A stretch of 32,000 bases of DNA from Desulfobacterales bacterium (GTDB lineage: Bacteria; Desulfobacterota; Desulfobacteria; Desulfobacterales; JAFDDL01): assembly GCA_963677545.2 (NCBI GenBank), contig CAXXKH010000003.1, forward strand, positions 672,563 to 704,562, read 5' to 3'. Position 1 is the first letter of the stretch. Every line of letters starts with the position of its first letter. Positions 1 to 26,844 of the stretch are shown here, piece after piece. The notes under the pieces are model-generated. The model saw only the letters and a list, made by a program, of their open reading frames with translations, did not search any database and was not told where the DNA came from. The position numbers and the translations under genes were made by a program.

Positions 1-1971
1 TTCCACATAGTCGAGGGCTGTCCGGACCGGGCTGCTTTTTTTAAAAAATTCCATCAGGTTGGTTTCAACGCGAAGGTGGCTTGTATAGATAACGGAAGCA
101 ACCACGATCGCCGCGCATACGACTATTACTAATCGATATTTTTCGAAAACGAATGAAAAGAGGTGGCGAAGTATCGTGGAAATCCTGTTGCCGCCGTCAT
201 ATTCCTGATAGACTTTTTTCGGGTCGAAACAGAGAATCAGGGGCGGCAGAAAAAAGAAAGAAAAGATGAACTCAAAAACCATGCCCGCGGATGCAATCCA
301 TCCGAATTCCTTAACCGGAGGGATATCGCTGATGCAAAGAGAAATAAACCCGATCGCCGTGGTAAGAGTGGTCAGGAAGCAGGGGAGTGCCACGCGATTC
401 ACTACATGGGAAAGTGCCTGTTTCCGCCGAGGGAACCGTTTCAGTATCTGCCGATCCATGTGGCTGAAGATATGAACCGTGTCGCAGAGCGCAAGCGCCA
501 TGACAAGTGGAATAATAATTGTGGTGACGTTGTTCAGGGCGATACCCATAAGCCCCATCAAGCCCCGGGTAGCGCCGACACAAATGGAGATATTGAGAAT
601 TGACAGAAATGTAATTCGAATATTTCTAAAAAAGAGCCATGTGAAAATGGTGAGAAGCAGATAGGTCGCGGGTACGAAAATGAGCACATCAGATGTGAGG
701 TATTGGCTGAGGCTGAGGTTGGTGGTGGTCCAGCCTGCCATATAAAATTTGTTCCCGGCGGCCTCGAAGGGGGCAAGAATCTCCTTCACATCTGCGAGGA
801 CCCGTTTCCTGAGGCCGTCATCCTGGGCATCGACATGGGGTTCGACCACAATGGCCGTTGTCCGGCCATCCTTCGAAATCAGATTTCCTTTATACAAGGG
901 GTTTTGCAGGGCTCTAGCTCTCAGTGCGGACTGCTCTGCTTCGTTTTCCGGCAGATAGTCTAAAAGCGGACGTACTTCAAAATAATCTTCTCCCCCGCTG
1001 ATTTCGTTGACGTTTGCTAGGCTGGTTACTTCTTCGACATCATCCAGCTCTTCAATAGACCAGGTGATCTGCTGGATTATCTCCAGTGTTTCAGGAGAAA
1101 ACAGGTTGTCGTTTTTAAAAGCGATAATGAAGAATTCATCATCGCCGAAAATGGTTTTGAATGTGTCGTAATATTCCAACTCGGGGTTGTTTTCAAGCGT
1201 GAAAAAGTCGAAGTCACTGGCTGTTTTAACAAAGGGGTTGTACGCGATAAAAAAGCATCCGAAAAGCAGTGCCGCTATGAAAAAGAGCTTGGGGAATTGG
1301 CAAACGATACCGAGATTCAACGGCGTTTTAGAAAGCTGTGCGGTCAGTTCCTCTATTTTCCGAAATATTCGATTATAGGTACTGTGTCGCTGGAGTATTT
1401 CCTTGTAGGTTGCCAGGGCTTCCGGTTTATTACCGCTTTGTTCCTGAATGATGGCGATTCGTTCAAGAAGTCTCGCCTCTTTTTCGGGATCGTTCTTAAC
1501 CAGGGAAAGAGCTTTCCGCAGCATATTGATGCCGGCATCTATATCTTCTTTTAATAGAAGAACTTCTGCGATTCCTTCAAAAGAGACGCTGGCAAATTCA
1601 GGAGAAATCTCGGCCGCTTTTTCAAACTCCTTTACGGCCTCATTATAAAAACCAAGGGATCTTAATTGGACGGCTCTTCTGATAAGGGCTTCCGCCGGCA
1701 GGTCACCAGGCACCCGTGTAACTTCAGATTCCGGTTTTTCCGCTGCTGTTGCTTTTTCGTCGATTATTTCGAGTCTTCTTGCAAGTGCTTTTGTAATAGC
1801 TTTGAGTTGCTTCAGTTTCCTGCTATCGAACTCTCCACTGTTTTTCAGGGTTTCACGGCATTGTGCAAGCATGGATTCGTATATGCCCGCTGCCTCTCTG
1901 AACAGGCCCTGCTGAACATATATTTCTGCTTCTTTCAAACCTTGCCGGGTATTGGGTTTTATTCTGCTCAT
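1..1971 (-). CDS. RND-superfamily MMPL-type exporter with a ~217-aa N-terminal TPR-like soluble extension; 3' end lies beyond the window
   Basis: Absent from the ORF track because this frame has no stop inside the window. Hand translation of the minus strand from ATG 1971..1969 showed no stop in any block checked: all of 421..1971, plus 1..60 in the same frame; 61..420 was not translated. N-terminus MSRIKPNTRQGLKEAEIYVQQGLFREAAGIYESMLAQ... (TPR-like helices). Then TM1 LNLGIVCQFPKLFFIAALLFGCFFIAY, loop start FDFFTLENNPELEYYDTFKTIFGDDEFFIIAFK, and TM bundle GIALNNVTTIIIPLVMALALCDTVHIFSH, typical of MMPL/RND proteins. Confidence 0.8.
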   Translation of the reverse strand, partial: MSRIKPNTRQGLKEAEIYVQQGLFREAAGIYESMLAQCRETLKNSGEFDSRKLKQLKAITKALARRLEIIDEKATAAEKPESEVTRVPGDLPAEALIRRAVQLRSLGFYNEAVKEFEKAAEISPEFASVSFEGIAEVLLLKEDIDAGINMLRKALSLVKNDPEKEARLLERIAIIQEQSGNKPEALATYKEILQRHSTYNRIFRKIEELTAQLSKTPLNLGIVCQFPKLFFIAALLFGCFFIAYNPFVKTASDFDFFTLENNPELEYYDTFKTIFGDDEFFIIAFKNDNLFSPETLEIIQQITWSIEELDDVEEVTSLANVNEISGGEDYFEVRPLLDYLPENEAEQSALRARALQNPLYKGNLISKDGRTTAIVVEPHVDAQDDGLRKRVLADVKEILAPFEAAGNKFYMAGWTTTNLSLSQYLTSDVLIFVPATYLLLTIFTWLFFRNIRITFLSILNISICVGATRGLMGLMGIALNNVTTIIIPLVMALALCDTVHIFSHMDRQILKRFPRRKQALSHVVNRVALPCFLTTLTTAIGFISLCISDIPPVKEFGWIASAGMVFEFIFSFFFLPPLILCFDPKKVYQEYDGGNRISTILRHLFSFVFEKYRLVIVVCAAIVVASVIYTSHLRVETNLMEFFKKSSPVRTALDYVE

Positions 1972-2013: not shown

Positions 2014-2374
2014 CTCGCGCAGAGACGCTGAGGCGCAGAGAACAGCATTAAAAGATTATTATTTTTTAAAAAATGACACTATAATGGTTTTTCAAAGATG
2101 TGACCTTTTCTATCCTTATCTTTTTTTTGTTGTGCCCCGCTTCCCTGTAACTCTGATCGAGAATATTTGCGCCATTTGTTTTATGAAGGATTCTTACTCT
2201 TCTAAACCGTTAACAAATCGTTTAATCCCTGATTTCATCAAAGCATCGCCAAAATTAAGCAAATAACCAAGTTTGTGTCCTGTAAGGCGCAAGTACGTTA
2301 TTTATAGTCCCGATTTCGTTTTCATTCATGACTTGTTTTTCGCTGTTCTCTGCGCCTCAGCGTCTCAGCGCGAT
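2014..2374. mobile_element. MITE-like unit: 33-bp terminal inverted repeats flanking ~295 bp that contain an internally deleted GxxExxY gene
   Basis: Left arm 2014..2046 is CTCGCGCAGAGACGCTGAGGCGCAGAGAACAGC. The reverse complement of the right arm 2342..2374 is ATCGCGCTGAGACGCTGAGGCGCAGAGAACAGC (31/33 identical). The same arm sequence recurs as solo copies at 5615..5644, about 4420..4450, 10071..10100, 23233..23258 and about 29207..29235. Confidence 0.6.
2194..2329 (-). pseudogene. GxxExxY-family (PD-(D/E)XK-like) gene remnant: N-terminal ~9 codons joined out of frame to the C-terminal 33 codons
   Basis: The minus strand from ATG 2329 reads MNENEIGTINN..., the usual GxxExxY N-terminus (compare MNSITENQIGNMV at 15333). 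A shifted frame from 2295 then reads YLRLTGHKLGYLLNFGDALMKSGIKRFVNGLEE*, the usual family C-terminus. The central part carrying GxxExxY and ELKA is missing. Confidence 0.6.
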
Positions 2375-2398: not shown

Positions 2399-4363
2399 TT
2401 AAAAGTTTATTTCCAAAAGCCCATACACCTGATCATTGTCCGAATAAAAACCAATCGGTGTTTCTACCGATCCGTCAAAAAATTCTGCACCGAATTCAAG
2501 TCGAAGGGGCTGCCAATAGGCGATCTTGAACTTGGGATTGATCATAGTAGCATCTCCGGAAAAGTCATAATACCCACGACATTCAATTTCGTAATTACCG
2601 TTTGAAAAGGTTTTTCGAAACGTGCCGATCAGGGCGCTGGTTTGTTCCTCCGCCCAGACGATGAGCGGATCATAATCCCTGACCGAACTTTGGAAAAACT
2701 GAAGGTTGGCATACCATGCATTTGGGCTGTTGTAATCCATGCCGAGCATGTACTGCCACTGAGCTTTTTGCATACGTTCCAACCGGCTGGTTTGAAAGCT
2801 CTGGTTGTCAAAGTAGGCAATGTCGGCTCTGACCCCAAAATCTTTTACCGTTGTTTCAATCTCAAAACCGAAAATGTTTTGCCGGTTATGAACCAGTGAA
2901 ATGTTTTGGCCGGAAATGGAGGCAAACGATGCAAGATCAATCGGGGAAAACTCACCAGGCGGAAGCACAACACCCGGGGGCAGCCACATGCTGTCCGGTG
3001 TCGGTAAGTCCTCACGAGTGTAGAACCAACTGACGGCATAGTCGATATTTCTCAAAATTCCCGCTACCCGGATACCGTATTCGCTGTTGTCCAGGGAACA
3101 GCCGGGATCATCTTCAACTAAACCGAATGGACCAATTGTGCTGTCCGCGTGTCGAAACATGGCCCAGTCGGTGCCCGTGAAATCGAGTTCCGGGCCGAAA
3201 AAACCGGGGATATAAATACTCTGGAAGGTTATTTGGCCTTGGTATATTTCCAGGTTTGCCATGGGGATAGGGAGCTTCCGGTCTTCCCTGCGTCCGGCGA
3301 CACCATCCCGGTAGTCTTCAGGATTCAGATTGTCAAGGGGGCTGTAGCCATCTGTCTTGCCCCAGCGGACCACTTGATTGCCGAGCTTCAGGTTGAATCG
3401 CGGATGCGCGAAATTTATGTAGACATCGTGGAACCTCAGATTAAAGTCGTTATCCACATCCCCGCTGTTGGTATAACCATAATAATCGATATCCAGAGAG
3501 AATACCATTTGAAGATGGTTGTTCGGCTTATAGGTAGATTCCAGGATCAGTTCGGCGTGTCCATACCCATCGTCTTCGAATTCATTTTCAGTATTACTAT
3601 CCATGGATAGTAGGGTACGAAATCGTCCGGAAAGTTCGACTGGTGGCAGAGTGCTAATCGCATCCGGACTGCTGTCAGCACTGTCCCACAGGCCCTTCGC
3701 GCTTTCAGCCCCCGCCACATCCGAAGGCCCCTGATCCCAGAGATCACTGGCCCGGGTGTTATCGTCTTCAGAGGGGGGGGCTTCCCCCCAGAGATTGTCC
3801 GCATCGTCATCCGGGGATACGTCCGTATCCTCCCCCCAGATATCCTCGCTGCCTGCTGTTTCTTCTTCGTTGCTGCCGTGTGAAGTGGGCGTACTATCCG
3901 CTGCAGGTGAATGTTCGGTTGTCTGAAATGATTCTTGAGTCTCATTCTTGGGGTTGCTTATAAAAATGGTAACGACACCCCTGTTCTCTGAGGCATCGAA
4001 ATCAATACCGTTCAATATCTCGGTGTCAAGCACAATGCGCACTTTGCCGGGATGCTGTCCAACACGTACTGCTCTGACGATACCACTGCCGTCTTCCGGC
4101 CGTATGGTATTTTTTGAGAGAGTACACCCCTCCAGATCAATAACAATCCGATCTGGTGACGTCAATGTGAAAGGATTTATTTCCGGGATAATCCCGCTGA
4201 AATGGATTGTTACTGTGTCACCCGAATCATCGCTTTCAAGCTCGATATTTCTCACAACGGATCGTTGCATATCCCCGGTTTCGATATCTTCCCCGGAAGC
4301 TGACGGACAGATTGTAACCGCCATTGTCAACGCTGAAAGAACCCATATAGCCCAATTTTTCAT
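2399..4363 (-). CDS. Outer-membrane protein: signal peptide, AMIN-like domain, acidic Trp-repeat linker, and a DUF1302-like beta-barrel
   Basis: ORF 2399..4384; start moved to ATG 4363, giving signal peptide MKNWAIWVLSALTMAVTICPSASG. AMIN-like segment VRNIELESDDSGDTVTIHFSG...DRIVIDLEG...VRAVRVGQHPGKVRIVLD. C-terminal ~415 aa carry LGNQVVRWGKTDGYSPLDNLNP and end in the aromatic ...YGLLEINF, typical of OM barrels. Confidence 0.7.
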   Translation of the reverse strand: MKNWAIWVLSALTMAVTICPSASGEDIETGDMQRSVVRNIELESDDSGDTVTIHFSGIIPEINPFTLTSPDRIVIDLEGCTLSKNTIRPEDGSGIVRAVRVGQHPGKVRIVLDTEILNGIDFDASENRGVVTIFISNPKNETQESFQTTEHSPAADSTPTSHGSNEEETAGSEDIWGEDTDVSPDDDADNLWGEAPPSEDDNTRASDLWDQGPSDVAGAESAKGLWDSADSSPDAISTLPPVELSGRFRTLLSMDSNTENEFEDDGYGHAELILESTYKPNNHLQMVFSLDIDYYGYTNSGDVDNDFNLRFHDVYINFAHPRFNLKLGNQVVRWGKTDGYSPLDNLNPEDYRDGVAGRREDRKLPIPMANLEIYQGQITFQSIYIPGFFGPELDFTGTDWAMFRHADSTIGPFGLVEDDPGCSLDNSEYGIRVAGILRNIDYAVSWFYTREDLPTPDSMWLPPGVVLPPGEFSPIDLASFASISGQNISLVHNRQNIFGFEIETTVKDFGVRADIAYFDNQSFQTSRLERMQKAQWQYMLGMDYNSPNAWYANLQFFQSSVRDYDPLIVWAEEQTSALIGTFRKTFSNGNYEIECRGYYDFSGDATMINPKFKIAYWQPLRLEFGAEFFDGSVETPIGFYSDNDQVYGLLEINF

Positions 4364-4605
4364 GTTCGCTGTCCTATACCCCAACAGCGGGGTATTTAAT
4401 GAAAAGCCACTATTTCTCGTGCAGAGACGTAAAGATACAGAGCGATATAAAGCTGTGAAGCGAGGATGCCGGGAAGCTATGATGCAAAAACAAGCTTGAA
4501 ACTTTTGAGCCTCTTAAGAAAAGCGGTGTGGAATTGCATTGGGTTGCTATGAAGAAACAGAAACTTTCTGTACCTCAGTCCCCCTTGCATTTGAAAAACA
4601 TCCCG

Positions 4606-4755
4606 TTATCCTATTGCCTAAAGCCTATAATCCATCTCCTCCTTGCTTATGTTCTTTCCGACCTCAGATCTCCGACTTCCGACCTCTGGCACCTTGCCCC
4701 TTGATGTTTCTTCCAGGCTTCATAGCCTCCCAGCCTTCAAGCTCCCCGCTCCACG
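4606..4755. repeat. Pyrimidine-rich (plus strand) modular tract directly 3' of the stop codon of the 4756..5541 gene
   Basis: Contains CCTATTGCCTAAAGCCTATAATCC, then CCGACCTCAGATCTCCGACTTCCGACCTCTGGC, then CTCCCAGCCTTCAAGCTCCCC. The same three modules recur at 23826..24062, 26681..26844, 29350..29458 and 31650..31826. Confidence 0.7.
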
Positions 4756-5541: not shown

Positions 5542-5614
5542 AGGGCCCCTTTTTGTTTAAAAATATTAAAAAAATATACTAAGAAAACGGTGAAAGTTCA
5601 AGTTTGTTTTAGTC

Positions 5615-5644
5615 GTTCTCTGCGTCACTGCGTCTCTGCGCGAG
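5615..5644. repeat. Solo copy of the GCGCAGAG-type repeat arm
   Basis: GTTCTCTGCGTCACTGCGTCTCTGCGCGAG, same orientation and near-identical to the right arm at 2342..2374. Confidence 0.6.
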
Positions 5645-5675
5645 AAATAAATGCTTTTATGCCGTAAAAGGTATG

Positions 5676-7682
5676 TCAGACAAATTCCTGAAGCGCCGGT
5701 AACGCGAGTTGGGCGGTTTCAATGGAAACATCGATCCCTGGTGGGGACATGATTTGATAAATTGTGTGGTAGCTATCAGGTATTGGTCCGACAATTTGCT
5801 CGATCCCCTGCAGGTGAATTCCCTGACGAGCCAGAAAAGAGATATAGGTGTGTCGTAATGCCTCGGGGGTTATTTGTTGCGGATCTCGAATCTGCGCCTG
5901 CTCGGCCGCCTCTAAGATACATTCCTCAGTTGTTTTGAGGGGAAAGGGGGCGCCCTTTTCGTTTCTCAGAATGTATTCGTCACCGTTCGTAGTCACTGAA
6001 AGGTTTTTTAAAAGAATCGAACGATAAAGTGGTGTTAATGGAATCGTTCGAGTGGAAGCCCCAGACGCTTTCAGCTTTCCTGTATCGAAATCGATATTTT
6101 TCCATTTTAACCGGATAATTTCATCGATGCGCAATCCGTTAAACAATCCCGCGATTATAGACTGTGTTGCGTCACTTGAAGCCACGTACAGTTTTTTAAT
6201 TTCCACATCCGACAACTCACGTGACAATATCTGTTCTGCTGGTGGAAGAAGGTTCTGACTTGCAGGCGTGCCTTGTAATTCGCTATGGGTTTGTGATGGC
6301 AGGCTTTGAAACACTTGATTGTAAGTGACGGGGAAAGCACCCAGGTCTTCTTTTCCGGCAGGGGCTCTTGTCAGAAAATCGAAGATTAGAACAGCGGCAA
6401 TTGCCAGCAACAGTGACACAACGACACTGATGGCAGCGTCACGCACATAATTTGGACGCGAAGGAGACTCCGGGAGGAAAGCCCTTTCGAGAACTTTGAT
6501 CTGAAGCAAGTCCGCGTCGCTTTTAATTTCCATTGCAACCATTTCTTTCTGATATTCTCTGCTCAACTTTTCGAGTTCCAGCAGGTTTTCTTTCAGCGAT
6601 TCGTATTCGGAAAAACGACCGCTGAATTCGGCGGCTTTTTTTTCATATGAAGCTATCTGAGCACGCAAATCATTTTCTGCGTGGCGCGCGCTTATGATTG
6701 CCTGTTCAGCCTCTTCAAGGGCAACTGTTTTAAGTTCCGTATGTTTGGATTGGATTTCTTCTATAAGACGGTGATATCTGTCTATGGTTGTCCGCGTGTT
6801 TTTGTCGATTTCTAAAAACTGAGGGGTGTACCGCGCTTCGTAATCCCTGACCAATTCCTCCATTTCGTCTGCTTTTTCCTCCAGACGCAGGAGTTCGGTG
6901 GTTTTTTTATAATTGCCTGCCCATTTTCCCTGTTCGATCGCTTCTTTGACTGAACGGAGATTCGCTTCCGCCAGTGTTCTATTTTCCGTTGCTTTATTCA
7001 GCGAATTATTCAACCCCTTCAGGGTAGAGAGAACTTTATTGCCATCTCGCTCCAGAGTGACAATGTCATATTTTTGGCGAAGCTGTTCCAGTTCCTCTCG
7101 TTTCTTTTCAATTTTATTGTTCAAGGTCTCGATTTGTTGATGAAGAGATACCGTGGTTGAATTCGAATAGGCTTGTTGTGTTTTTGAGTTCATGCCTACA
7201 TAGCGATCGATCCACGAATTGACGATGACCGGTAAGATCGCTTTATTCGGGCCGGCTGCTGTCAGGCGAATGACTGCACTATCTGAACGGGTTGTAACAT
7301 GAAGCATCGGACGGAGGGCGGAAACGGTGAACGGTTCCAAATACCCGGTATAGTCTGTTGAGGATAAACCGGTCAGCACATCCGACAGCAGGCTTCTGCT
7401 TAACAGCACTTGTTCCTGAAGCGCAATGTCATATGTGCTGGCATCCTGCCCTTCGCTGTTCGGATTTTTAGGTTCGATGAGCAAATCGGCGCTTGACTCG
7501 TAAATAGGCGGCCTGGCAAAAGTAAAAGCAAGTGACAGGGCGGCGACGACAATAAATACCCCTGCAAATATAAGCAGTCTTTTCCAAGACCTGTGTATTC
7601 TGGATCGAGGGGGTAGTTTACGGTATGTGCCGTTGAGAGGAGAAGGTTCGTAAATATGAGTTTGAGATGATTGCTGGGCCAT
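5676..7682 (-). CDS. Polysaccharide co-polymerase (Wzz/EpsF-like chain-length determinant) fused to a C-terminal tyrosine-recombinase-like domain
   Basis: TM1 LLIFAGVFIVVAALSLAF. Wzz motif FARPPIYESSADLLIEP. Long coiled coil. LPESPSRPN followed by TM2 AAISVVVSLLLAIAAVLIFDFL. The C-terminal ~185 aa (5676..6230) carry GLRIDEIIRLKWKNIDF, TRTIPL, and ITPEALRHTYISFLARQGIHLQGIEQIVGP...HTIYQ, resembling integrase boxes I and II. Confidence 0.7.
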   Translation of the reverse strand: MAQQSSQTHIYEPSPLNGTYRKLPPRSRIHRSWKRLLIFAGVFIVVAALSLAFTFARPPIYESSADLLIEPKNPNSEGQDASTYDIALQEQVLLSRSLLSDVLTGLSSTDYTGYLEPFTVSALRPMLHVTTRSDSAVIRLTAAGPNKAILPVIVNSWIDRYVGMNSKTQQAYSNSTTVSLHQQIETLNNKIEKKREELEQLRQKYDIVTLERDGNKVLSTLKGLNNSLNKATENRTLAEANLRSVKEAIEQGKWAGNYKKTTELLRLEEKADEMEELVRDYEARYTPQFLEIDKNTRTTIDRYHRLIEEIQSKHTELKTVALEEAEQAIISARHAENDLRAQIASYEKKAAEFSGRFSEYESLKENLLELEKLSREYQKEMVAMEIKSDADLLQIKVLERAFLPESPSRPNYVRDAAISVVVSLLLAIAAVLIFDFLTRAPAGKEDLGAFPVTYNQVFQSLPSQTHSELQGTPASQNLLPPAEQILSRELSDVEIKKLYVASSDATQSIIAGLFNGLRIDEIIRLKWKNIDFDTGKLKASGASTRTIPLTPLYRSILLKNLSVTTNGDEYILRNEKGAPFPLKTTEECILEAAEQAQIRDPQQITPEALRHTYISFLARQGIHLQGIEQIVGPIPDSYHTIYQIMSPPGIDVSIETAQLALPALQEFV

Positions 7683-9925: not shown

Positions 9926-10009
9926 CCCTCCTGGAATTTTTGATTTGTACTTTTGGATTAATATAAGTATCAGATGTTTTCAATAATTTTTTTCTATGTT
10001 TTCTTATCT

Positions 10010-10218
10010 CCCGTTTCGTTCAAGATCGTGAGAGACCGCCGGGAACTACCTGAAAAGCAGAAAAATAATCTCGCGCAGAGCCGCAGAGCCGCCGAGAACT
10101 GCAAAAGAAGCTATTGCATTTCGCTGATCGCGAAATACAATAAAGGCATTCCCACTGGAAAGGAGCGCCTGCCGCAGGCATCGAGGTTTTTCTTTGCCGA
10201 GGCGTCCCTGTCTTGTAA
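10010..10218 (+). repeat. Modular hairpin repeat, copy with L-type arm variants, H1 hairpin and truncated H4
   Basis: TTCGTTCAAGATCGTGAGAGACCGCCGGGAAC, then TCGCGCAGAGCCGCAGAGCCGCCGAGAAC, then ATTGCATTTCGCTGATCGCGAAATACAAT, then GCATTCCC..GGAAAGG, then GCCGCAGGCATCGAGGTTTTTCTTTGCCGAG. Confidence 0.7.
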
Positions 10219-10304
10219 TCCATGTGCAAATAGGAATAGCCAACTATCGATGGAGTGATGATAACCAGCTTTACATTAAATTTAATACCTGATAGTTTTG
10301 TGTT

Positions 10305-10616
10305 ATGGAAAAAGCTGCTAAGGAGACTTTTAAAAAGGTTGTTACGGAACAATTTCCAGTCAATCAGAAGCGAGGGGGAGGCATAGTTAAAATCGAGGCT
10401 TGGGAAAATGAAAAGGGTGAAATCGTTAAATACAGTATGGCATACATCAATCCTTTCATTTTTCCGGAGGATAATGGCCGTGTGGTTGGGTATGACAACA
10501 CACATAATTTTCATCATCGCCACTTTTTCGGAGAACTATCTGAAATAAAAGATTTTTCAAGCTATCAGGAATTGTTAAATCGTTTCGAAAAAGAGCTTAA
10601 GGAGTTCATTGAATGA
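10305..10616 (+). CDS. DUF6516/TumE-like putative toxin
   Basis: 103 aa with GYDNTHNFHHRHFFGE motif (compare RYDDTPHFPKLNSFPNHKH at 31357..31587). 4-nt ATGA overlap with the downstream wHTH gene. Confidence 0.5.
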   Translation: MEKAAKETFKKVVTEQFPVNQKRGGGIVKIEAWENEKGEIVKYSMAYINPFIFPEDNGRVVGYDNTHNFHHRHFFGELSEIKDFSSYQELLNRFEKELKEFIE

Positions 10617-10987
10617 GTGTAGAATTAAGACCTGGATTGTTATCCGATTTTTTTGCATCTGCGAAGGCAACCGCAAAAGAGATCGACGAGGGCAAAAAAG
10701 TAACGAAAAAAAATATTATTTGGGTCGAGCCATCCGATCTTATGGCCATATTAAAGCCGGAAAGGACGCGATTAGTTCGGTATTTAAAGAAAAAGCAACG
10801 GGTGGTTTTTTCAGAACTGATGTCTGAAATGCAGCGTACACCGGTCAGTTTAAATAACGACTTGAAAATATTATCCCAATACCAATTGGTTAGAATATTC
10901 AAGGAATCCAATGCCGGACATGGAATGCATAAGGTCATCGAGGCAACCTACGGTAACGAAAATATTGAGTTTAAGGCTGTGATTTGA
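10613..10987 (+). CDS. wHTH DNA-binding protein (TumA / HVO_A0114-like putative antitoxin-regulator)
   Basis: Translationally coupled to 10305..10616. Layout IIWVEPSDLMAILKPERTRLVRYLKKKQRVVFSELMSEMQRTPVSLNNDLKILSQYQLV fits a MarR-like winged helix. Confidence 0.5.
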   Translation: MSVELRPGLLSDFFASAKATAKEIDEGKKVTKKNIIWVEPSDLMAILKPERTRLVRYLKKKQRVVFSELMSEMQRTPVSLNNDLKILSQYQLVRIFKESNAGHGMHKVIEATYGNENIEFKAVI

Positions 10988-11002
10988 AAACTGAAAAGGG
11001 TA

Positions 11003-11157
11003 TTACATCTCGTTGACTACGAATTACATTAGTGCGTTTCTTATAGATAGGGAGAACCTTGCAGCAGGCATAGATGGTTTTGCTTGCCGAGTGTTCCAGG
11101 CAAAAATATCTTTTCTTGGCGCCTCTTTGCGTTCTTGAACGAAGTGGGCGGTGAGAA
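11003..11157 (+). repeat. Modular hairpin repeat, degenerate H1/H2 plus H3, H4 and R arm
   Basis: ...GCAGCAGGCATAGATGGTTTTGCTTGCCGAGTGTTCCAGGCAAAAATATCTTTTCTTGGCGCCTCTTTGCGTTCTTGAACGAAGTGGGCGGTGAGAA. Confidence 0.65.
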
Positions 11158-11202
11158 GGGCTTAGAAAAACATTATTTTTCAAAAAAGACTGACGTTTTT
11201 TA

Positions 11203-11460
11203 ATGGTAACAAAGCGAAAAATACTTCAGAAATTGCTTTCAGGGTCAAAAAATATCCGATTTTCTGATATGATAACCCTTGTTGAAGCTTTTGGTTTTCA
11301 GCTTTCTCGTACCAATGGAAGTCATAATGTTTTCGTTCATCCTGACATCCCGGAACTTATCAATCTTCAAGAGGTGAAAGGGAAAGTCAAACCATATCAG
11401 GTTCGTCAATTCCTGAAACTAATAGAGCGAAACAACTTGAGCTTGGAGGAGTATAAATGA
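11203..11460 (+). CDS. hicA: HicA-family toxin
   Basis: FGFQLSRTNGSHNVFVHPD...LQEVKGKVKPYQVRQFLKLIE matches the HicA GSH core. ATGA overlap with the hicB-like gene. Confidence 0.75.
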   Translation: MVTKRKILQKLLSGSKNIRFSDMITLVEAFGFQLSRTNGSHNVFVHPDIPELINLQEVKGKVKPYQVRQFLKLIERNNLSLEEYK

Positions 11461-11681
11461 GAGATTACCACATAAATATTTTCTATTCCGAAGAGGATGG
11501 TGGATACATTGCCGACATTCCGGATTTGAATGCTTGCTCTGCCTACGGTAATACCCCCGAAGAGGCGCTTTGCGAAGTTCAAAAAGCGAAAACGATTTGG
11601 CTGCAAACCGCTCGTGATAGTAAAAGACCGATCCCCCTTCCGAAATACAGACCTGTTATCTATCAAGCATCATGTGCTTAG
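11457..11681 (+). CDS. hicB: HicB-family antitoxin (short form)
   Basis: YHINIFYSEEDGGYIADIPDLNACSAYGNTPEEALCEVQKAKTIWL is the typical HicB N-terminal fold. Coupled to hicA. Confidence 0.75.
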   Translation: MRDYHINIFYSEEDGGYIADIPDLNACSAYGNTPEEALCEVQKAKTIWLQTARDSKRPIPLPKYRPVIYQASCA

Positions 11682-11758
11682 TGATATGACGATTTTTCGA
11701 TCGAGATCTCAAAGGGCTTTTTATGTCTGTCGTGTGAACTACCTTTTTTTATAAGAAT

Positions 11759-11817
11759 TGTTTACCGGCCACTCCGCCTCGACATCGGGACTACGCTAAA
11801 GGGTGCCAAGGGCCGCT
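11759..11817 (+). repeat. L-arm fragment of the modular repeat
   Basis: TGTTTACCGGCCACTCCGCCTCGACATCGGGACTACGCTAAAGGGTGCCAAGGGCCGC, compared with 12518..12575 TTTTTTACCGCCCACTACGCCCTGTCGGACTTCGTTCAAGGCCGCCAAGGACCGCC. Confidence 0.55.
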
Positions 11818-11984
11818 TAGATTGACAAAGGCTGGTTGCATAGGAAATATTTGCCTGATAGAAAGATAAAAGATAAATTGCATTCGAAACTACCGCGGAT
11901 TTGGGAATAGTAACTTTGAATTAATTGAGTATGGACATTCAGATTATTATTCTGTTCCATAACTATTGAAAGGTAAGTGAGAGC

Positions 11985-12305
11985 ATGATGTCAACTCAGG
12001 ACAAGAAAATCCTTGAACTTTTTACGGCACGAGTTCGAGACCTGTACAAGGACGCACGGGTTTGGGCCTATGGATCACGCGTACGGGGGGATGCAACCTG
12101 GGAGTCCGATTTTGATATTTTTATACTCTTGCCGAAAAAGGATGAATTTGCAGAGACAAAGATCAGGAATATCGGTTGGGAGATTGGCTTTGAACATGAA
12201 AGAGTTCTTACCACCGTGATAATGGAGCAAAATCAATTTGAGCATGGTCCCATGTCTGAGAGCACTCTTGTTAAAAATATCCTGCATGAAGGCCTGGAAG
12301 CGTGA
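11985..12305 (+). CDS. MNT-type nucleotidyltransferase antitoxin
   Basis: AYGSRVRGDATWESDFDIFILL (GS...D.D polymerase-beta-type NTase motif). 4-nt overlap with the HEPN gene. Confidence 0.75.
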   Translation: MMSTQDKKILELFTARVRDLYKDARVWAYGSRVRGDATWESDFDIFILLPKKDEFAETKIRNIGWEIGFEHERVLTTVIMEQNQFEHGPMSESTLVKNILHEGLEA

Positions 12306-12484
12306 CCTCTGAAAACATAAAAGCGTTGGTCCGGTATCGGCTTGAACAATCCGACGAGTCTATTAAAGCTGCGGTTTTGTTACTCCAAGAGGGCATCCCG
12401 AGACGCTCGGTCAACAACTCCTACTATGCTATGTTTTATGCCGTCATGGCGCTTCTTTGCGATCTTAAGCGAAGCGAGCGGTGA
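12302..12484 (+). pseudogene. HEPN-domain toxin gene truncated after ~51 codons by a repeat R arm
   Basis: The native part ...LLLQEGIPRRSVNNSYYAMFYAVMALL is a typical HEPN first half. The last codons CDLKRSER* are encoded by the repeat GGCGCTTCTTTGCGATCTTAAGCGAAGCGAGCGGTGA. The C-terminal half, where HEPN proteins carry the Rx4-6H motif, is absent. Confidence 0.65.
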
Positions 12485-12487
12485 GAT
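12448..12487 (+). repeat. R arm of the modular repeat (forms the 3' end of the truncated HEPN ORF)
   Basis: GGCGCTTCTTTGCGATCTTAAGCGAAGCGAGCGGTGAGA, compared with 15724..15762 GGCGCTTCTTTGCGATCTTGAGTGAAACGGGCGGTGAAA. Confidence 0.7.
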
Positions 12488-12517
12488 AGCAGTTATTTTT
12501 TGGCTTTTATGATATTG

Positions 12518-12665
12518 TTTTTTACCGCCCACTACGCCCTGTCGGACTTCGTTCAAGGCCGCCAAGGACCGCCAAGGCCGCCAAAGGCGGCTAAAAGCTG
12601 CAAGGTGCTATTGTATTTCGCTGGTCACGAAATACAATGAGAGCATTCCCTTCGGGAAGAGGGAG
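12518..12665 (+). repeat. Modular repeat, L arm through H2, right half missing
   Basis: TTTTTTACCGCCCAC...CTTCGTTCAAGGCCGCCAAGGACCGCCAAGGCCGCCAAAGGCGGCTAAAAGCTGCAAGG..ATTGTATTTCGCTGGTCACGAAATACAAT..GCATTCCCTTCGGGAAGAGGG. Confidence 0.7.
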
Positions 12666-12798
12666 CAGATATGTTTTTCTCAGCGGTTTGCTTGAATTGA
12701 TGGGCTTCGCACTGTATGTGGAAAATATTCTGTTGACAAAATGCCCTGTAGATTTACATTTGAAATGTACGAAAATATAACGAATTTATATTATTATA

Positions 12799-12956
12799 GT
12801 GAACGTTACAGAACTCAGGAAACATATATCTGCATATATGAATAAGGTAAAAGCAGGTGAAGAGGTGGAGATAACGTCTCGGGGCAAGGTTATTGCGAGG
12901 CTGGTTCCGGAGGTGGATGAAAGCCGCGCTGCACGCATGCGTCTGGCTTCTATTAG
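12799..12956 (+). pseudogene. Truncated orphan copy of the Phd/YefM-type antitoxin gene at 14387..14626
   Basis: 12713..12956 aligns with 14303..14553 (promoter, operator and the first ~53 codons: NVTELRKHISAYMNKVKAGEEVEITSRGKVIARLVPEVDESRAARMRLASI). The SD and ATG are lost and homology stops at 12956. No cognate PIN gene follows. Confidence 0.6.
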
Positions 12957-13000
12957 TCTCTATGGTGAGCACTCAAAAAGAAGTTGCTATTTATTAAAAA

Positions 13001-13390
13001 TCAAATTTTCCAACCACGTTGAACAACAATTTCGGGCAAGGGGTAATGTTTGGTGTTTAATGTATAAATCTTACCTCCGGTTTGTATGACGGTGGCAGCC
13101 AGAATCGCATCGTTCACGTCCATGCCATGGCTCGGATTCCAGCGACGATAAAGCTCTCCTGCCTTATCGATAATAGTCTGGTCGACCTGTTCGGTTTTAA
13201 ATTGCGATAAAAACAGCAAAGTGGCTTTTTCTTCAACCGGGCGCATAAAAAACACCACTTCGGCGCGCTGCATGGTACCGATCCAGAGTTCCATCTTTTC
13301 TCTGTCGCGCAGTTTTTTAAGTAAGTTGAGAGCGTTCCGTTCACCGCGCAAATGCCATATGAGAATATCCGAATCGATAAACGCTTTCAT
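13001..13390 (-). CDS. vapC: PIN-domain toxin (VapC-like)
   Basis: MKAFIDSDILIWHL...MDVNDAILAATVIQTGGKIYTLNTKHY shows the PIN acidic residues. 4-nt overlap with the upstream antitoxin gene. Confidence 0.75.
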   Translation of the reverse strand: MKAFIDSDILIWHLRGERNALNLLKKLRDREKMELWIGTMQRAEVVFFMRPVEEKATLLFLSQFKTEQVDQTIIDKAGELYRRWNPSHGMDVNDAILAATVIQTGGKIYTLNTKHYPLPEIVVQRGWKI

Positions 13391-13644
13391 CGCTTATATC
13401 TTTCCTGGGATATGCGCATTGTTGTCTTGATTCGTGTAATCGTATCGTCCGCGGATTCGTCACGTTGCCAGCTGCCAAACGTTTGGACCAAGAGATCCAG
13501 ATCTTTCTCCGAAGCGATTTTTTCCGCATAGGCCTGGACAGCGTTTTCGAGGACAGCTTTTTTTGATGTCCCCAGTTTTTGAGCCAGCATACCGATTTTC
13601 CGAATCACCGCTTCATCCATACGAGTTGACATTATTTTATCCAT
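13387..13644 (-). CDS. Antitoxin partner of the PIN toxin (RHH/VapB-like)
   Basis: Start moved from 13803 to ATG 13644, preceded by AGGAGG. The longer ORF N-terminus is repeat-encoded. MDKIMSTRMDEAVIRKIGMLAQKLGTSKKAVLENAVQAYAEK. Confidence 0.65.
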   Translation of the reverse strand: MDKIMSTRMDEAVIRKIGMLAQKLGTSKKAVLENAVQAYAEKIASEKDLDLLVQTFGSWQRDESADDTITRIKTTMRISQERYKR

Positions 13645-13672
13645 TTCGAACACCTCCTGTGTATATGTAAGA

Positions 13673-13701
13673 AAGATAACGTAAGATTGTTTAATTGTCA
13701 A
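13673..13701 (-). promoter_or_regulatory. Candidate sigma-70 promoter for the antitoxin-PIN operon
   Basis: On the minus strand: TTGACA (13701..13696), 17 nt, TATCTT (13678..13673), about 30 nt upstream of ATG 13644. Confidence 0.35.
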
Positions 13702-13728
13702 CGGATCATGGTTGAATTGAATGTTACA

Positions 13729-13808
13729 GCGCTTTTGGGATCCTCTCTGCGATCTTGAGCGAAGCCCTGTGCCCCTTGTGCCGGGGAGGCAGGCAGTGAG
13801 CATGCAGT
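13729..13808 (+). repeat. R arm of the modular repeat, long variant with extra GC hairpin
   Basis: TTTTGGGATCCTCTCTGCGATCTTGAGCGAAGCCCTGTGCCCCTTGTGCCGGGGAGGCAGGCAGTGAGCATGCAG, compared with 14137..14206. Confidence 0.6.
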
Positions 13809-13964
13809 AGCATTTAAGCCGTTGATGTTGATTTTATTTATGCGGTAAGATCGATGCCCTGACAAGGCGTTGACTATAGTCATTGACCATAGTACCAAAT
13901 GAATAACGCTTATTTGCGATTTGAAGGCATAAATATAGTTGTTTTAAGCCTTTGTGATAAGAAC

Positions 13965-14206
13965 TTTTTACCGCCCACTTCGTTCAAGACCGCCAAGAAC
14001 CGCCAAGAACAACAAGTGCACATTGTATTTCGCTGATCGCGAAAAACAATGGGTGCATTCCCTCCAGGAAGGTAGTGCATGCCGCAGGCATCAAATTTTT
14101 TCTTGGCCGAGATGTCTCCGGCAAACAAAAAGATCTTTTCTTGGCCTTCCTTCCCGACCTTGAGCGAAGCCCCGACGCCGGGGCAGGTAAGGCGGTGAGA
14201 ATGCAG
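13965..14206 (+). repeat. Complete ~240-bp copy of the modular repeat (L arm, H1-H4 hairpins, R arm); reference copy
   Basis: The L arm TTTTACCGCCCACTTCGTTCAAGACCGCCAAGAA is the inverted complement of the consensus R arm end (..TTCTTGGCGCTTCTTTGCGATCTTGAACGAAGTGGGCGGTGAAAA in other copies). Internal hairpins: ATTGTATTTCGC-TGATC-GCGAAAAACAAT, TTCCC-TCCA-GGAA, ATGCC-GCA-GGCAT and TTGGCCGAG-ATGTCT-CCGGCAAA. Confidence 0.75.
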
Positions 14207-14324
14207 TTTTTTGCTCGACCAAGCGGGTCAGGAAATTTATGGCTGTGAGGTTTGAAAGCGTTTTTGGGGGTATCCCGATTTGTCTGAAATGAGGGGCTTT
14301 ATAATGTAAATGGAGAAAATACTA

Positions 14325-14365
14325 TTGACAAAATGCCCTACAGATGTACATTTGAAATGTACATC
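14325..14365 (+). promoter_or_regulatory. Promoter plus perfect 23-bp palindromic operator of the phd-PIN operon
   Basis: TTGACA 14325..14330, 16 nt, TACATT 14347..14352. The palindrome GATGTACATTT-G-AAATGTACATC at 14343..14365 overlaps the -10. Confidence 0.55.
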
Positions 14366-14386
14366 TATAAAATCAAGGTGATTTAT

Positions 14387-14626
14387 ATGATTATAGTAAA
14401 TGTTACAGAGCTTAGAAAACATATACCTGCATATATGAACAAGGTGAAGGCCGGTGAAGAGGTGGCGATAACGTCTAGGGGCAAAGTTGTCGCAAGGTTG
14501 GTTCCGGAGGTAGATGAAAGCCGCGCTGCACGAATGCGCCTGGCTTCAATCAGAAAAGAGAGCTGGGTGGGGGATGTGATCACACCGACCGGTGAGCCGT
14601 GGGAGGCTGACCATGATTCTCCTTGA
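14387..14626 (+). CDS. Phd/YefM-type antitoxin
   Basis: Start moved to ATG 14387, preceded by AAGGTGA. MIIVNVTELRKHIPAYMNKVKAGEEVAITSRGKVVARLVPE is a typical Phd/YefM N-terminus. Overlaps the PIN gene start. Confidence 0.75.
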   Translation: MIIVNVTELRKHIPAYMNKVKAGEEVAITSRGKVVARLVPEVDESRAARMRLASIRKESWVGDVITPTGEPWEADHDSP

Positions 14627-15008
14627 CACCTGTGTCATGATATTCGATGCGCTTACGCCGGAAAAACTCAGTCAGAAGGCCTTCAAGGAACTGGAAAAAG
14701 GCAGACAATCAAATAACCTTGTCTGCAGCGATATTACACTATGGGAAATCGCTATGCTTGTCAGTAAAGAAAGACTGAAGCTTCCTATACCACTTCATGA
14801 TTTTCTGACCGATGTCATATTGGCCAACAGACTGCGGGTGCTTCCCATTGGCCCTGAAATTGCCGCTTTTTCAGCCTGCCACAGCGAATTTATTCATGGC
14901 GATCCAGCTGACAGAATTATCGCGGCAACCGCGTTGCACCACAATGCGGTTCTTCTAACCTGTGATACCAGACTGAGAAAAATAAAAAGCTTGAAAACGA
15001 TGTGGTGA
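14613..15008 (+). CDS. vapC: PIN-domain toxin (VapC-like)
   Basis: MILLDTCVMIFDAL...HGDPADRIIAATALHHNAVLLTCDTRL. ATG 14613 preferred over the upstream alternative start at 14592. Confidence 0.8.
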   Translation: MILLDTCVMIFDALTPEKLSQKAFKELEKGRQSNNLVCSDITLWEIAMLVSKERLKLPIPLHDFLTDVILANRLRVLPIGPEIAAFSACHSEFIHGDPADRIIAATALHHNAVLLTCDTRLRKIKSLKTMW

Positions 15009-15029
15009 TTGAATCGATCTTTTTTTTCA

Positions 15030-15190
15030 GCTCACTTCTCCCTATGGGATAAACTGAGATGCGGTATTGGTGAGAGCTGCAAAAAGCCCTGCCGGAGGCA
15101 TCGAAGTTTTTATTTGCCGAGTTGTCTTCGGCAAACAAAAAATCTTTCCTTCGCGTTTCTTTGCGATCTTGAACGAAGTGGGCGGTGAAA
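15030..15190 (+). repeat. Modular repeat copy lacking H1 (H3, H4 and R arm present)
   Basis: GCTGCAAAAAGCCCTGCCGGAGGCATCGAAGTTTTTATTTGCCGAGTTGTCTTCGGCAAACAAAAAATCTTTCCTTCGCGTTTCTTTGCGATCTTGAACGAAGTGGGCGGTGAAA. Confidence 0.7.
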
Positions 15191-15332
15191 TATTCAGTAT
15201 TTTTTTTGCTTTTCAGTGAAGTCCCTATCATGCATAGATACCTAAATAATTCTGCAAGGTTGTGGTATTTTTTATTTAATGATAAACTGATTTCTTAAGT
15301 CAGAATCCATTAAGGATATTGGCGAGATCGCG

Positions 15333-15653
15333 ATGAATTCGATAACTGAAAACCAGATCGGCAATATGGTGGTTGATGCTGCAATCCAAGTTCATAGAAC
15401 ACTTGGACCGGGACTGCTTGAAAGTGCATATGAAGTATGCCTTACTCATGAATTACGATCACGAGGTGTTACAATTCAAACTCAGGCCGAGTTGCCAATA
15501 ACTTATAAAAATGTCCGGTTGGATGCCGGTTACCGCTTGAATATTCTGATTGAAAATAAGGTTATTATTGAACTGAAGGCGGCTAAAAACTGCAAAAATC
15601 ATATTGCATTTCGCTGGTCACGAAATACAATAAGGTGCATTCCCTTCGGGTAG
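15333..15653 (+). pseudogene. GxxExxY-family (PD-(D/E)XK-like) gene truncated after ...IIELKA by a repeat copy
   Basis: GPGLLESAYEVCLTHELRSRGV...LPITYKNVRLDAGYRLNILIENKVIIELKA is the canonical first ~83 aa. From 15577 the ORF reads through repeat sequence (AKNCKNHIAFRWSRNTIRCIPFG*). The family C-terminus (..YL..G..LGLL.NF..) is absent. Confidence 0.65.
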
Positions 15654-15768
15654 GGAGCTTGCTGCAGGCATCAAGGTTTTTCTTTGCCGAGTCGTCCCCG
15701 GCAAACAAAAAATAGCTTTTCTTGGCGCTTCTTTGCGATCTTGAGTGAAACGGGCGGTGAAAATGCAG
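15577..15768 (+). repeat. Modular repeat copy, 5'-truncated inside the L-side GCCGCC-AAA-GGCGGC hairpin; H1-H4 and R arm intact
   Basis: AAGGCGGCTAAAAACTGCAAAAATCATATTGCATTTCGCTGGTCACGAAATACAAT...GCTGCAGGCATCAAGGTTTTTCTTTGCCGAGTCGTCCCCGGCAAACAAAAAATAGCTTTTCTTGGCGCTTCTTTGCGATCTTGAGTGAAACGGGCGGTGAAAATGCAG. Confidence 0.75.
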
Positions 15769-15804
15769 TTGAATGTTCTTCAATACCCTGAGCGGTGAGA
15801 CAAT

Positions 15805-22184: not shown

Positions 22185-22232
22185 GGAGAAAGGCTATGGG
22201 CAAGGGGCTATAGGCTATGGGGTAACAAACAG
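22185..22232. repeat. Inverted-orientation copy of the CCYATWGCC sub-module (purine-rich on the plus strand)
   Basis: GAGAAAGGCTATGGGCAAGGGGCTATAGGCTATGGGG is the reverse complement type of 31665..31690 and 31747..31785. Confidence 0.5.
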
Positions 22233-23185: not shown

Positions 23186-23285
23186 TTTCACCGCAAGGAG
23201 CGCCAAAAGCTGCCGTAAAAAGCAAAAAATTATCTTGCGCAGAGCCGCTCAGAACTGCAGGCACATTACATTTCGTTATCCGTGG
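23186..23285 (+). repeat. Fragmentary modular repeat (arm variants plus a degenerate H1 left half)
   Basis: TTTCACCGCAAGGAGCGCCAAAAGCTGC...CTTGCGCAGAGCCGCTCAGAACTGCAGGCACATTACATTTCG. Overlaps the 3' end of ORF 23276..23476. Confidence 0.5.
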
Positions 23286-23825: not shown

Positions 23826-24062
23826 GCCTCTCTCTTTTGAGTCGAAGATCCCAGCGTCGGGACGAAGCGGTCTCCTATCTTCCCTCTATTTATCCCCGCT
23901 GTTCGTATCTTCCGAACTTCAGCTTTTTGTGCCCAGGCACCAGACCTCCGAACTCTGATCTTTTTATCTCCGTAGTCTCCGGCTTCAGACCTTCGACCTC
24001 CGAGTTAAAGCTTTCTGTCAGTAATTTCTGACCTCAGATTTCTGATCTCAGACCTCTGGCTA
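23826..24062. repeat. Pyrimidine-rich modular tract directly 3' of the stop codon of TPR gene 24063..26351
   Basis: Degenerate ~10-nt units such as CAGACCTCCGAACTCTGATC, GGCTTCAGACCTTCGACCTCCGAG and TTCTGACCTCAGATTTCTGATCTCAGACCTCTGGC. Confidence 0.65.
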
Positions 24063-26351: not shown

Positions 26352-26523
26352 TGTGTTTCCTCCAAGTGATGATGAAGCAGCAGGGAGCTTGGGGCGTGGA
26401 ACTTGGAGTTTAAAAAATATTTCCACTACACCATTTTTGTCTATGATTTTAGTATTTCCCATATCTGACTCCGGTCTACGTTATTGGTTTTTGACTCACT
26501 TGTAAAAGCATGAATCTCACGGG

Positions 26524-26615
26524 AAGCTGCAAAGAACGTAACGGTAACACTCTTTTTTGGTTTTTTTTGCGTTCTTTGCAGTGCAGTTTACCCCGGTGTC
26601 GGGGCGTGAGAAATT
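26524..26615 (+). repeat. Fragment related to the long R-arm variant of the modular repeat, with a 12-bp inverted repeat
   Basis: CTGCAAAGAACG...31 nt...CGTTCTTTGCAG, then TTTACCCCGGTGTCGGGGCGTGAGAAATTGC (compare 14170..14205 CCCCGACGCCGGGGCAGGTAAGGCGGTGAGAATGC). Confidence 0.5.
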
Positions 26616-26680
26616 GCTGTTGTTTTTTAAAGTCGTCAGTTTTTTGACCAAACTCCGTTCCAAACGGATGGTACAGTGGA

Positions 26681-26844
26681 ACTGACTTCTGATTCCCGAT
26701 TTCAGGCCTCTGGCTTCTTTACTCTCTACTCCAAACTTCTTGCCCTTTGCCCATTGTACATAATTTTTCTGACTTCCGATCTCTGACTTCTGACCTCTAT
26801 CTCTTTACTCTTTGCTTCCATGCTCCAAGCTCCTCGCTTCCCGC
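26681..26844. repeat. Pyrimidine-rich modular tract directly 3' of the stop codon of TPR gene 26845..29142
   Basis: CTTCTGATTCCCGATTTCAGGCCTCTGGC ... TTCTGACTTCCGATCTCTGACTTCTGACCTCTATCTC ... GCTTCCATGCTCCAAGCTCCTCGCTTCC. Confidence 0.7.

Follow-up and report, generated by a model that had tools for sequence, protein, structure and literature searches.

The closest described counterparts of the element studied here are the intervening sequences (IVSs) of 23S rRNA that carry an S23p open reading frame (ORF), as in Leptospira and Coxiella burnetii. The element itself is an inverted-repeat unit enclosing the remains of a GxxExxY gene, at positions 2007-2381 of a 32,000-nucleotide stretch of a Desulfobacterales genome (contig CAXXKH010000003.1, positions 672,563 to 704,562; hereafter the window). 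The Coxiella IVS has 428 nt, a 28-bp terminal stem and three tandem GACAGAT heptamers before the S23p ORF; it is cleaved by RNase III, its ORF is decaying and its repeat number varies between strains (PMC4990558). Both kinds of element measure 0.4-0.8 kb and consist of a terminal-repeat stem around one small ORF, with tandem heptamers in the 5' arm directly before the ATG. Moreover, a 23S_rRNA_IVP gene lies between heptamer arrays in the orthologous spacer of a relative of the window (69% identity, see below). Unlike the IVSs, the window unit is located in an mRNA spacer, between a barrel and an MMPL gene, and not in helix 25 or 45 of 23S rRNA, and its cargo belongs to the PD-(D/E)XK-fold family PF13366, not to S23p/PF05635. 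Excision by RNase III has been demonstrated for IVSs and is proposed by analogy for the window unit.

The STRRs (short tandemly repeated repetitive elements) of heterocyst-forming cyanobacteria are hairpins of tandem 7-nt repeats between co-transcribed genes, for instance hupS and hupL, and a function in transcript stability has been proposed for them (PMC2670836). They resemble the window unit in placing tandem heptamer hairpins in the spacers of co-transcribed genes, and differ from it in phylum, in unit sequences and in repeat spacing, which is 8-9 nt in the window arms. No association of STRRs with GxxExxY or four-helix-bundle genes was reported in the literature searched. Vioque is said to have found in 1997 that STRRs extend a helix of RNase P RNA. 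In the repetitive extragenic palindrome (REP)/REPIN systems with their REP-associated tyrosine transposases (RAYTs), a small nuclease-type gene is flanked by inverted dispersed hairpin repeats, and gene-less hairpins are far more numerous. The apparent likeness to the window unit is the small nuclease-type gene between inverted hairpin repeats. However, RAYTs are HUH (Y1) enzymes and GxxExxY proteins are of the PD-(D/E)XK type, REPs are single short palindromes and the window arms are heptamer arrays, and a catalytic link between GxxExxY proteins and the arms is only putative. Miniature inverted-repeat transposable elements (MITEs), such as the Neisseria Correia elements and the enterobacterial repetitive intergenic consensus (ERIC), also have terminal inverted repeats, carry no transposase, occupy operon spacers and are co-transcribed with host genes; the RNA hairpins of Correia elements are RNase III substrates. 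The window unit differs from them in having motif-array arms and a gene relic inside; a target-site duplication is not visible, and the window holds no further full-length copy close to it in sequence.

Already known are the IVSs that carry S23p ORFs, the STRR hairpins of cyanobacteria and systems of the REP/RAYT type. By contrast, no description of GxxExxY genes, or of S23p genes outside rRNA, as cargo of inverted heptamer arrays was found in the literature searched, which contained few mentions of GxxExxY and none on its genomic setting. A survey of the PD-(D/E)XK superfamily lists PF13366 as 'unknown'.

Results

Arms and gene relic of the window unit

The unit is probably, at odds of roughly seven in ten, a dead copy of an IVS-like, hairpin-armed GxxExxY gene cassette that colonises intergenic spacers. 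Its arms (2014-2046 and the reverse complement of 2342-2374) are identical at 31 of 33 positions; this can be read directly from the sequence and had been reported in a first-pass annotation made from the letters alone. A repeat finder widened the arms to 2007-2046 and 2342-2381 (40 nt, 90% complementary, 36/40, with 295 nt between them). The 31-nt arm core was present at exactly two places in the window (0 and 1 mismatch, against an expectation of 0.00 from 100 shuffles), and the two cores, agreeing at 30 of 31 positions, are still 97% complementary. Each arm is composed of three CGCNGAG heptamers at 8-nt spacing, fitting the consensus C[A/G]CN[A/G]AG. In the sense (minus-strand) orientation, the 5' arm (2342-2381, ..TATCGCGCTGAGACGCTGAGGCGCAGAGAACAGC) ends 12 nt before the ATG of the relic, and the 3' arm (2007-2046, GCTGTTCTCTGCGCCTCAGCGTCTCTGCGCGAGAATTCGT) is its inverted copy. 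The two arms resemble each other far more than they resemble any other copy in the window (82-91%). No direct repeat indicating a target-site duplication was seen at the outer ends of the unit, by eye only and without an empty orthologous site to define those ends. In the rest of the 32-kb window and in 22 kb of one relative, the unit had arm-length matches only and no near-identical full-length copy.

The N-terminal relic (2303-2329, minus strand, ATG plus eight codons, MNENEIGTI) begins with the ATG at 2329, 12 nt in from the arm, and fits the M(T/N)ENEI start that is conserved among intact homologues. The C-terminal relic, ITYLRLTGHKLGYLLNFGDALMKSGIKRFVNGLEE*, follows one base past this piece in another frame (2194-2301, 35 codons and the stop, a one-base shift), and the deletion junction lies at approximately 2299-2303. 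This C-terminal piece matched PF13366 (PDDEXK_3) at positions 90-117 of 117 (E 1.4e-5, 25.9 bits, above the 22-bit gathering score), TIGR04256 at positions 89-116 of 116 (E 2.2e-5, 24.8 bits) and, at positions 93-124, a custom hidden Markov model (HMM) built from 55 full-length homologues (E 4.4e-10). The TIGR04256 score stays under the whole-protein cut-off of 35 bits, as expected because the relic is a fragment. The first-pass annotation had recognised both the GxxExxY start and the frame-shifted canonical C-terminus; the HMM searches bore it out, since the relic translation matches the family significantly. It had also counted about 85 missing central codons. The loss is real, and comparison with the 127-aa homologues sets it at residues ~10-91 (~82 codons). 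G24/E27/Y30, R65, D67, E77 and K79 all fall within the deleted residues. As the GxxExxY motif and the catalytic residues are gone, the unit contains a pseudogene relic and not a functional family member; it cannot yield a protein, because some 82 central codons, all catalytic residues and the reading frame have been lost. Between the relic stop and the 3' arm there is an A/T-rich spacer (2047-2193, minus strand, 147 nt, about eight times the family median of 18.5 nt), which matched nothing among the other sequences compared.

The relic is co-oriented with both flanking genes. Upstream is a gene for an outer-membrane barrel with AMIN and DUF1302 domains (2399-4384, minus strand, stop at 2399), and downstream a TPR and MMPL transporter gene (1-1971, minus strand, start at 1971) that extends beyond the window, as the first-pass annotation had it.

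Inverted heptamer arrays around GxxExxY genes in many phyla

We compared 80 GxxExxY loci from GTDB genomes of many phyla (458 kb); the source genome of the window is not among them. In a motif-free search, inverted repeats were sought between the 200 nt before and the 200 nt after each gene, with mismatched partners as the control. Thirty of the 80 loci scored above the 95th percentile of the control, and almost all of the repeats found were arrays of CGCAAAG, CGCAGAG, CACAAAG, CGCCAAG and the like. Arrays were then defined as runs of C[AG]CN[AG]AG at 7-12-nt spacing, which replaced a generic periodic-word detector that was too noisy. There were 158 such runs in the 458 kb vs. 3-5 in shuffled sequence. 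Within 250 nt, a forward run was present upstream of 39 genes, a reverse run downstream of 42, and both in 29. Considering the nearest arms, the layout of the window unit (forward before the gene, reverse after it) occurred in 25 genes and the opposite one in 4, while none of 159 control ORFs from the same loci was bracketed by such arrays. The bracketed genes come from Bacteroidota, Acidobacteriota, Verrucomicrobiota, Chloroflexota, Planctomycetota and other phyla. The first-pass annotation had proposed a link between the arms and GxxExxY genes and had pointed to intact copies elsewhere as the place to look for it; the link is there, in 25-29 of 80 intact-gene loci, and since it holds across phyla the alternative that intact genes show no association with arms is contradicted.

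The cassette type is thus a GxxExxY gene of ~125 aa between two inverted arrays, each of 2-4 C[A/G]CN[A/G]AG units at 8-9-nt spacing. The array on the start side stops ~20 nt short of the ATG (median 22 nt), and the other begins ~20 nt past the stop (median 18.5 nt), compared to 12 nt and 147 nt in the window unit. Cassettes sit between co-oriented genes; both neighbours had the orientation of the cassette 137 times out of 156 (baseline 149/189, p 0.03). Common arm termini (TTAACCGCAARG, TGCCACNAAG, TTCACGCAAAG) are found in 27 protein pairs with at least 75% identity whose genomic surroundings are not homologous. The arms thus accompany the gene to unrelated sites. A chloroflexotal locus (L026), the nearest relative of the relic at the DNA level, has the same TCTCGCGCAGAG.. 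arms.

Fourteen of the 80 genes come from a single Chryseobacterium lineage, whose inverted repeat is of another kind and longer, and this cassette occupies one same site across the 14 species. In 12 of them the gene lies between the arms; in the other two (L076 and L061) it stands downstream of the reverse arm and is followed by an unrelated palindrome. The position of the gene relative to the hairpin can therefore change at one orthologous site.

Close homologues of GxxExxY and PF05635 proteins are mostly found on contigs of ~0.5-2 kb, and the repeated arms appear to break short-read assemblies. Read-through of the arms by ORF callers also gives rise to spurious ORFs, tails or heads such as SSASLRLRG, MNRRDTETQS, SASLRLCG and RRDAEAQR.

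Occupants of the same spacer in relatives

Relatives of the source genome were located through the barrel protein, and the identities given are those of this protein. In the 86% relative (a 5.77-Mb contig), the barrel-MMPL spacer has 458 nt that cannot be aligned with the window's and holds a gene-less composite unit of ~230 nt with CGCCAAG-type arms, like the one at window positions 13958-14182. The 82% relative has an empty hairpin of GCTGGGA units there. In the 69% relative (L204) the spacer harbours an intact gene for a 119-aa PF05635 protein (23S_rRNA_IVP, four-helix bundle, E 3.6e-31), located between inverted arrays of at least 215 nt that are 82% complementary and built from AGCTGAT/AGCTCGT heptamers. 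The operon spacers of the 43% relative are only 17 and 160 nt long, and the 160-nt spacer holds one array. The differing occupants of one operon spacer indicate that the units turn over, and that various members of one architectural class have settled time and again in the spacers of this operon.

Homologues of this PF05635 protein, 70-85% identical to it, were found at four unrelated sites, all with AGCT[C/G]AT arms of 5, 11 or ~30 units. One of these sites is a TPR-TPR junction matching window 26463-26844; more distant PF05635 genes are flanked by other heptamers. Members of both the GxxExxY and the PF05635 families are thus housed in hairpins of one type, formed by inverted heptamer arrays. 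Because similar arms of other motifs bracket the unrelated PF05635 genes, GxxExxY is one cargo among at least two, and not demonstrably the engine.

At window 26463-26844, between two paralogous TPR genes, there are TCTGACTTC-type arrays, and three related assemblies (L207-L209) have an intact PF05635 cassette at this junction. Two of these cassettes contain 5 heptamer units and the remaining one 11, a difference suggesting slippage in unit number. The TPR genes are a tandem pair of lipoprotein genes (24063-29142, minus strand, 799 and 765 aa, offset 2785 nt, 70-74% identical as DNA) and belong to a PEP-CTERM/exosortase-type locus.

Predicted RNA stem and encoded protein

The window unit would be transcribed along with the barrel-MMPL operon, and the transcribed arms would then pair into an imperfect RNA stem of ~35 bp. 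The predicted fold of the unit has the arms paired (minimum free energy -113.8 kcal/mol, z -6.3, none of 100 shuffles as stable, stem ~35 bp). By analogy with 23S rRNA IVSs, such a stem may be a substrate of RNase III, a tentative proposal to which we give slightly less than even odds; cleavage would remove the cassette from the transcript and leave the flanking cistrons unharmed. Today the relic would be at most an intercistronic hairpin, or neutral. In Chryseobacterium (12 species, one site) a 25-bp stem is nearly invariant, with double compensatory changes at two pairs. The excess of cassettes co-oriented with both neighbours also speaks for an RNA stem. No Rfam RNA family was matched in the entire window.

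In the intact protein, D67/E77/K79, R65 and the GxxExxY motif (numbering of locus L013) are invariant in 55 homologues. A structure model has a PD-(D/E)XK fold (pLDDT, predicted local distance difference test, 95.8), with Cas4 and lambda exonuclease as the nearest folds and a weak match to EndA; the fold matches are generic (best E 2e-3), and a PDB sequence search found no solved relative of GxxExxY. That the encoded nuclease acts on the arms at the DNA level is possible, though we consider it unlikely.

Gene-less hairpins in metagenomes

JGI metagenomes were scanned for CGCNGAGNCGCNGAGNCGCNGAGAA, which gave at least 120 stretches with at least 138 arm instances in 609 kb. Among the matches listed, on which the counts given here are based, a reverse-type partner lies no more than 435 nt away for 77 of the 138 arm instances, and 42 are without a partner. 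The paired arms mostly enclose gene-less loops of 7-200 nt (overall range 7-333 nt), often with nested hairpins of other motifs. Three intact GxxExxY genes were present, each exactly inside an arm pair, with inner lengths of 379, 380 and 435 nt. Within this very common class of hairpins, GxxExxY cassettes are therefore in the minority, as the metagenome arms are mostly gene-less.

Second GxxExxY gene and other units in the window

A second GxxExxY gene starts at 15333 (15333-15582, plus strand) and is 3'-truncated. Its ORF matched TIGR04256 at profile positions 3-82 of 116 (E 4e-27), and it has Asn in place of the catalytic Asp (RLNIL), the D67 that is invariant in homologues. The first-pass annotation correctly described repeat copies on both sides of this gene, but it attributed the truncation to one of them. 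Alignment with the orthologue of a relative, which is itself frameshifted, revealed instead a 240-nt deletion between two GGCGG microhomologies, and no repeat insertion. Codon ~84 is now joined to a point inside the downstream repeat; the last ~40 codons and part of that repeat were removed, and the gene-derived part ends at the GGCGG at 15578-15582. The deletion thereby fused the gene to a left-truncated composite hairpin unit (15583-15763, plus strand) that retains internal hairpins and a right arm of CTTGGCG/CTTTGCG type. Decay by deletion is a theme of the GxxExxY copies of this lineage, in the relic as in the 15333 gene.

A complete, gene-less composite unit is found at 13958-14182 (plus strand), with a CGCCAAG-type left arm, three internal hairpins and an inverted right arm. 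Further arm-like copies are located at 10069-10106 (plus strand, CGCAGAGCCGCAGAGCCGCCGAGAAC), in the place of the left arm of a composite hairpin unit, and at 23198-23248, where no gene accompanies the copy. Two spacers along in the barrel-MMPL operon, at 5608-5646, there is a solo arm of the same motif type as the relic unit (minus strand, TTCTCGCGCAGAGACGCAGTGACGCAGAGAAC); in the 69% relative, two arms of this type are paired around a composite hairpin unit. Heptamer-type arrays are present in every spacer of this operon.

Compared with ENA contig ctg96707l (ERZ21831104), the window is 99.1% identical over 14.2 kb (129 differences). Sixty-four of these differences are within two hairpin-arm stretches of 200-300 nt (4657-4752 and the gene-less composite unit at 13958-14182). 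In this strain the unit with the GxxExxY relic has the same orientation and no differences.

Window 9926-15804 (L081 2356-6045), between a FeeM/cNMP-binding gene and a ThiF-nitroreductase gene, is an island of toxin-antitoxin cassettes. Its modules are TumE with an HVO_A0114-like protein, HicAB, a nucleotidyltransferase, PIN with RHH, Phd with PIN, and GxxExxY; the cassettes, whose set and order are not the same in the 86% relative, are separated by composite hairpin units, each with an arm, three internal hairpins and the arm inverted. Integron attC-like boundaries were considered for this 10-16 kb island and rejected; the boundaries are inverted arm pairs instead of single attC palindromes, and there is no adjacent integrase gene. 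Tandem 7-9-mer arrays also occur in the spacers 4385-4755, 22192-22225, 23976-24060, 29353-29462, 30693-30767 and 31600-31816. They comprise at least three further kinds of array (GGTCGGAAG/TCTGAGG, GCTGGGAAG and GGCTATAGG), some of which resemble PF05635-flanking arms elsewhere (e.g. GCTGGGA in L013).

A gene at 5676-7682 (minus strand) encodes a 668-aa protein in which a Wzz chain-length-determinant domain is fused to a C-terminal tyrosine-recombinase domain (Phage_integrase, E 3.1e-12). This gene is missing at this position in the 86% relative and is represented by several ORFs in the 82% relative.

Discussion

We favour the view that the window unit is the dead remnant of a GxxExxY cassette of the type described above. 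Several observations weigh against this view or against parts of it. Within the sample of 80 genes, the strict motif was found on both sides in only about one third and was absent from 22, although the sample includes the 14 Chryseobacterium genes with their other repeat. Four genes stand between hairpins and not within one, including the second copy of the window and the closest DNA relative of the relic (L026), where the gene adjoins the hairpin. No convincing rRNA context, as judged by conserved 16S/23S motifs, was found for the GxxExxY or arm loci sampled. For the metagenome matches, most arms of this type enclose no gene, and no GxxExxY remnants were detectable in the loops of 66 gene-less hairpins. 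The hairpins may consequently pre-exist, with genes lodging in them. The first-pass annotation had suggested that the hairpin repeats are deletion derivatives of, or hitchhikers on, a selfish unit whose cargo or nuclease is the GxxExxY gene; the connection between arms and gene survives, and the derivation of gene-less hairpins by deletion is putative, their loops carrying no detectable remnant. Regarding the RNA stem, arm mismatches showed no sense-strand preference for G.U (73) over A.C (63; p 0.44); most of them were transversions (253). Arms within a cassette agree at 94% of fixed and 75% of degenerate motif positions, and at 48% of spacer positions (control 40%). As the motif is kept in preference to pairing, recognition of the heptamers by a protein fits at least as well as an RNA stem.

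Such recognition is the core of an unlikely alternative, a REP/RAYT-like or homing-type selfish DNA system. The GxxExxY nuclease would recognise and cut its cognate arrays as DNA (hairpin or cruciform), mobilising the cassette and, in trans, gene-less hairpins; the window unit would be a dead autonomous copy and the solo and empty arms its non-autonomous relatives. The better conservation of motif than of pairing argues for it, together with the retention of C[A/G]CN[A/G]AG across phyla for GxxExxY and of other motifs for PF05635 (AGCT[C/G]AT at four sites), arm termini that co-vary with the protein subfamily over non-homologous contexts, the invariant residues and the confident fold model near Cas4 and lambda exonuclease. 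The abundance of gene-less hairpins, the changing occupants of one spacer and the clustering of differences between nearly identical strains in hairpin units are also consistent with it. However, the nuclease role is only predicted, from generic fold matches and with an empty PDB search, and neither a visible target-site duplication nor gene remnants in empty loops support mobilisation. The Chryseobacterium cassette has stayed at one site over 14 species, PF05635 cargo is accompanied by several arm motifs, and motif type is confounded with host taxon. The empty loops, with their nested hairpins and the 77 of 138 arms paired within 435 nt, would also be accounted for if the hairpins were host elements, acting as an STRR-like stabiliser, in processing or as a terminator, and the GxxExxY gene a later guest that decayed. 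Arrays in every spacer of the operon, even in the 160-nt spacer of the 43% relative, and the cyanobacterial heptamer hairpins between co-transcribed genes with their proposed effect on transcript stability (PMC2670836) point the same way. We nonetheless judge this explanation quite improbable, since arm termini follow the gene subfamily to unrelated contexts, PF05635 homologues bring AGCT[C/G]AT arms to four different sites, and the distances between array and ORF are tightly constrained.

Two further explanations have very little left in their favour. Given the gene-less arm-like copies at 5608-5646, 10069-10106 and 23198-23248, the bracket could be a coincidence, in which an abundant dispersed repeat has by chance placed two unconnected copies in opposite orientation around an unrelated pseudogene. 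This is highly improbable, because the arms are alike at 30 of 31 positions compared to 82-91% for the other window copies, a gap of 12 nt before the ATG is usual for family members, and the same bracket surrounds 25-29 of 80 homologues and none of the 159 control ORFs. The first-pass annotation had also raised an invertible or excisable switch, in which the 33-40-bp repeats would serve as sites for the recombinase-like domain 3.3 kb away and flipping would regulate MMPL expression. Inverted repeats around a ~300-bp segment between two operon genes and the Phage_integrase domain of the 668-aa protein speak for the idea, but it is the least probable of all those considered. The segment has no promoter-like site inside and contains a gene relic co-oriented with the operon. 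The arm type is a family architecture, flanking GxxExxY genes in phyla without this recombinase. The Wzz-integrase gene is not conserved alongside the spacer, the 86% relative lacking it and having an unrelated hairpin there, and the unit is identical and in the same orientation in the 99.1% strain.

The reading as a decayed cassette could be extended to a much wider one, which we regard as speculative and fairly unlikely as a whole. GxxExxY nucleases and S23p proteins would be cargo, and possibly agents, of one widespread, undescribed class of hairpin-armed mini-elements with cargo-specific heptamer arms, which colonise hairpin loops, operon spacers and rRNA helices. 23S rRNA IVSs, STRRs and the many gene-less heptamer hairpins of soil and sediment bacteria would then be the same phenomenon, and GxxExxY might act on its own arms in a RAYT-like or homing fashion.

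Taken by itself the relic is unremarkable, and its interest is the family-wide link that it exposes. GxxExxY (PF13366) and PF05635 are among the commonest unexplained families of small genes, occurring in genomic 'bursts', and the origin of rRNA intervening sequences has been a standing question since the 1990s. The heptamer arms constitute a defined candidate substrate for the GxxExxY nuclease and for RNase III. A common hairpin home, arms that travel and spacer occupants that change together offer a concrete, testable model for both families.

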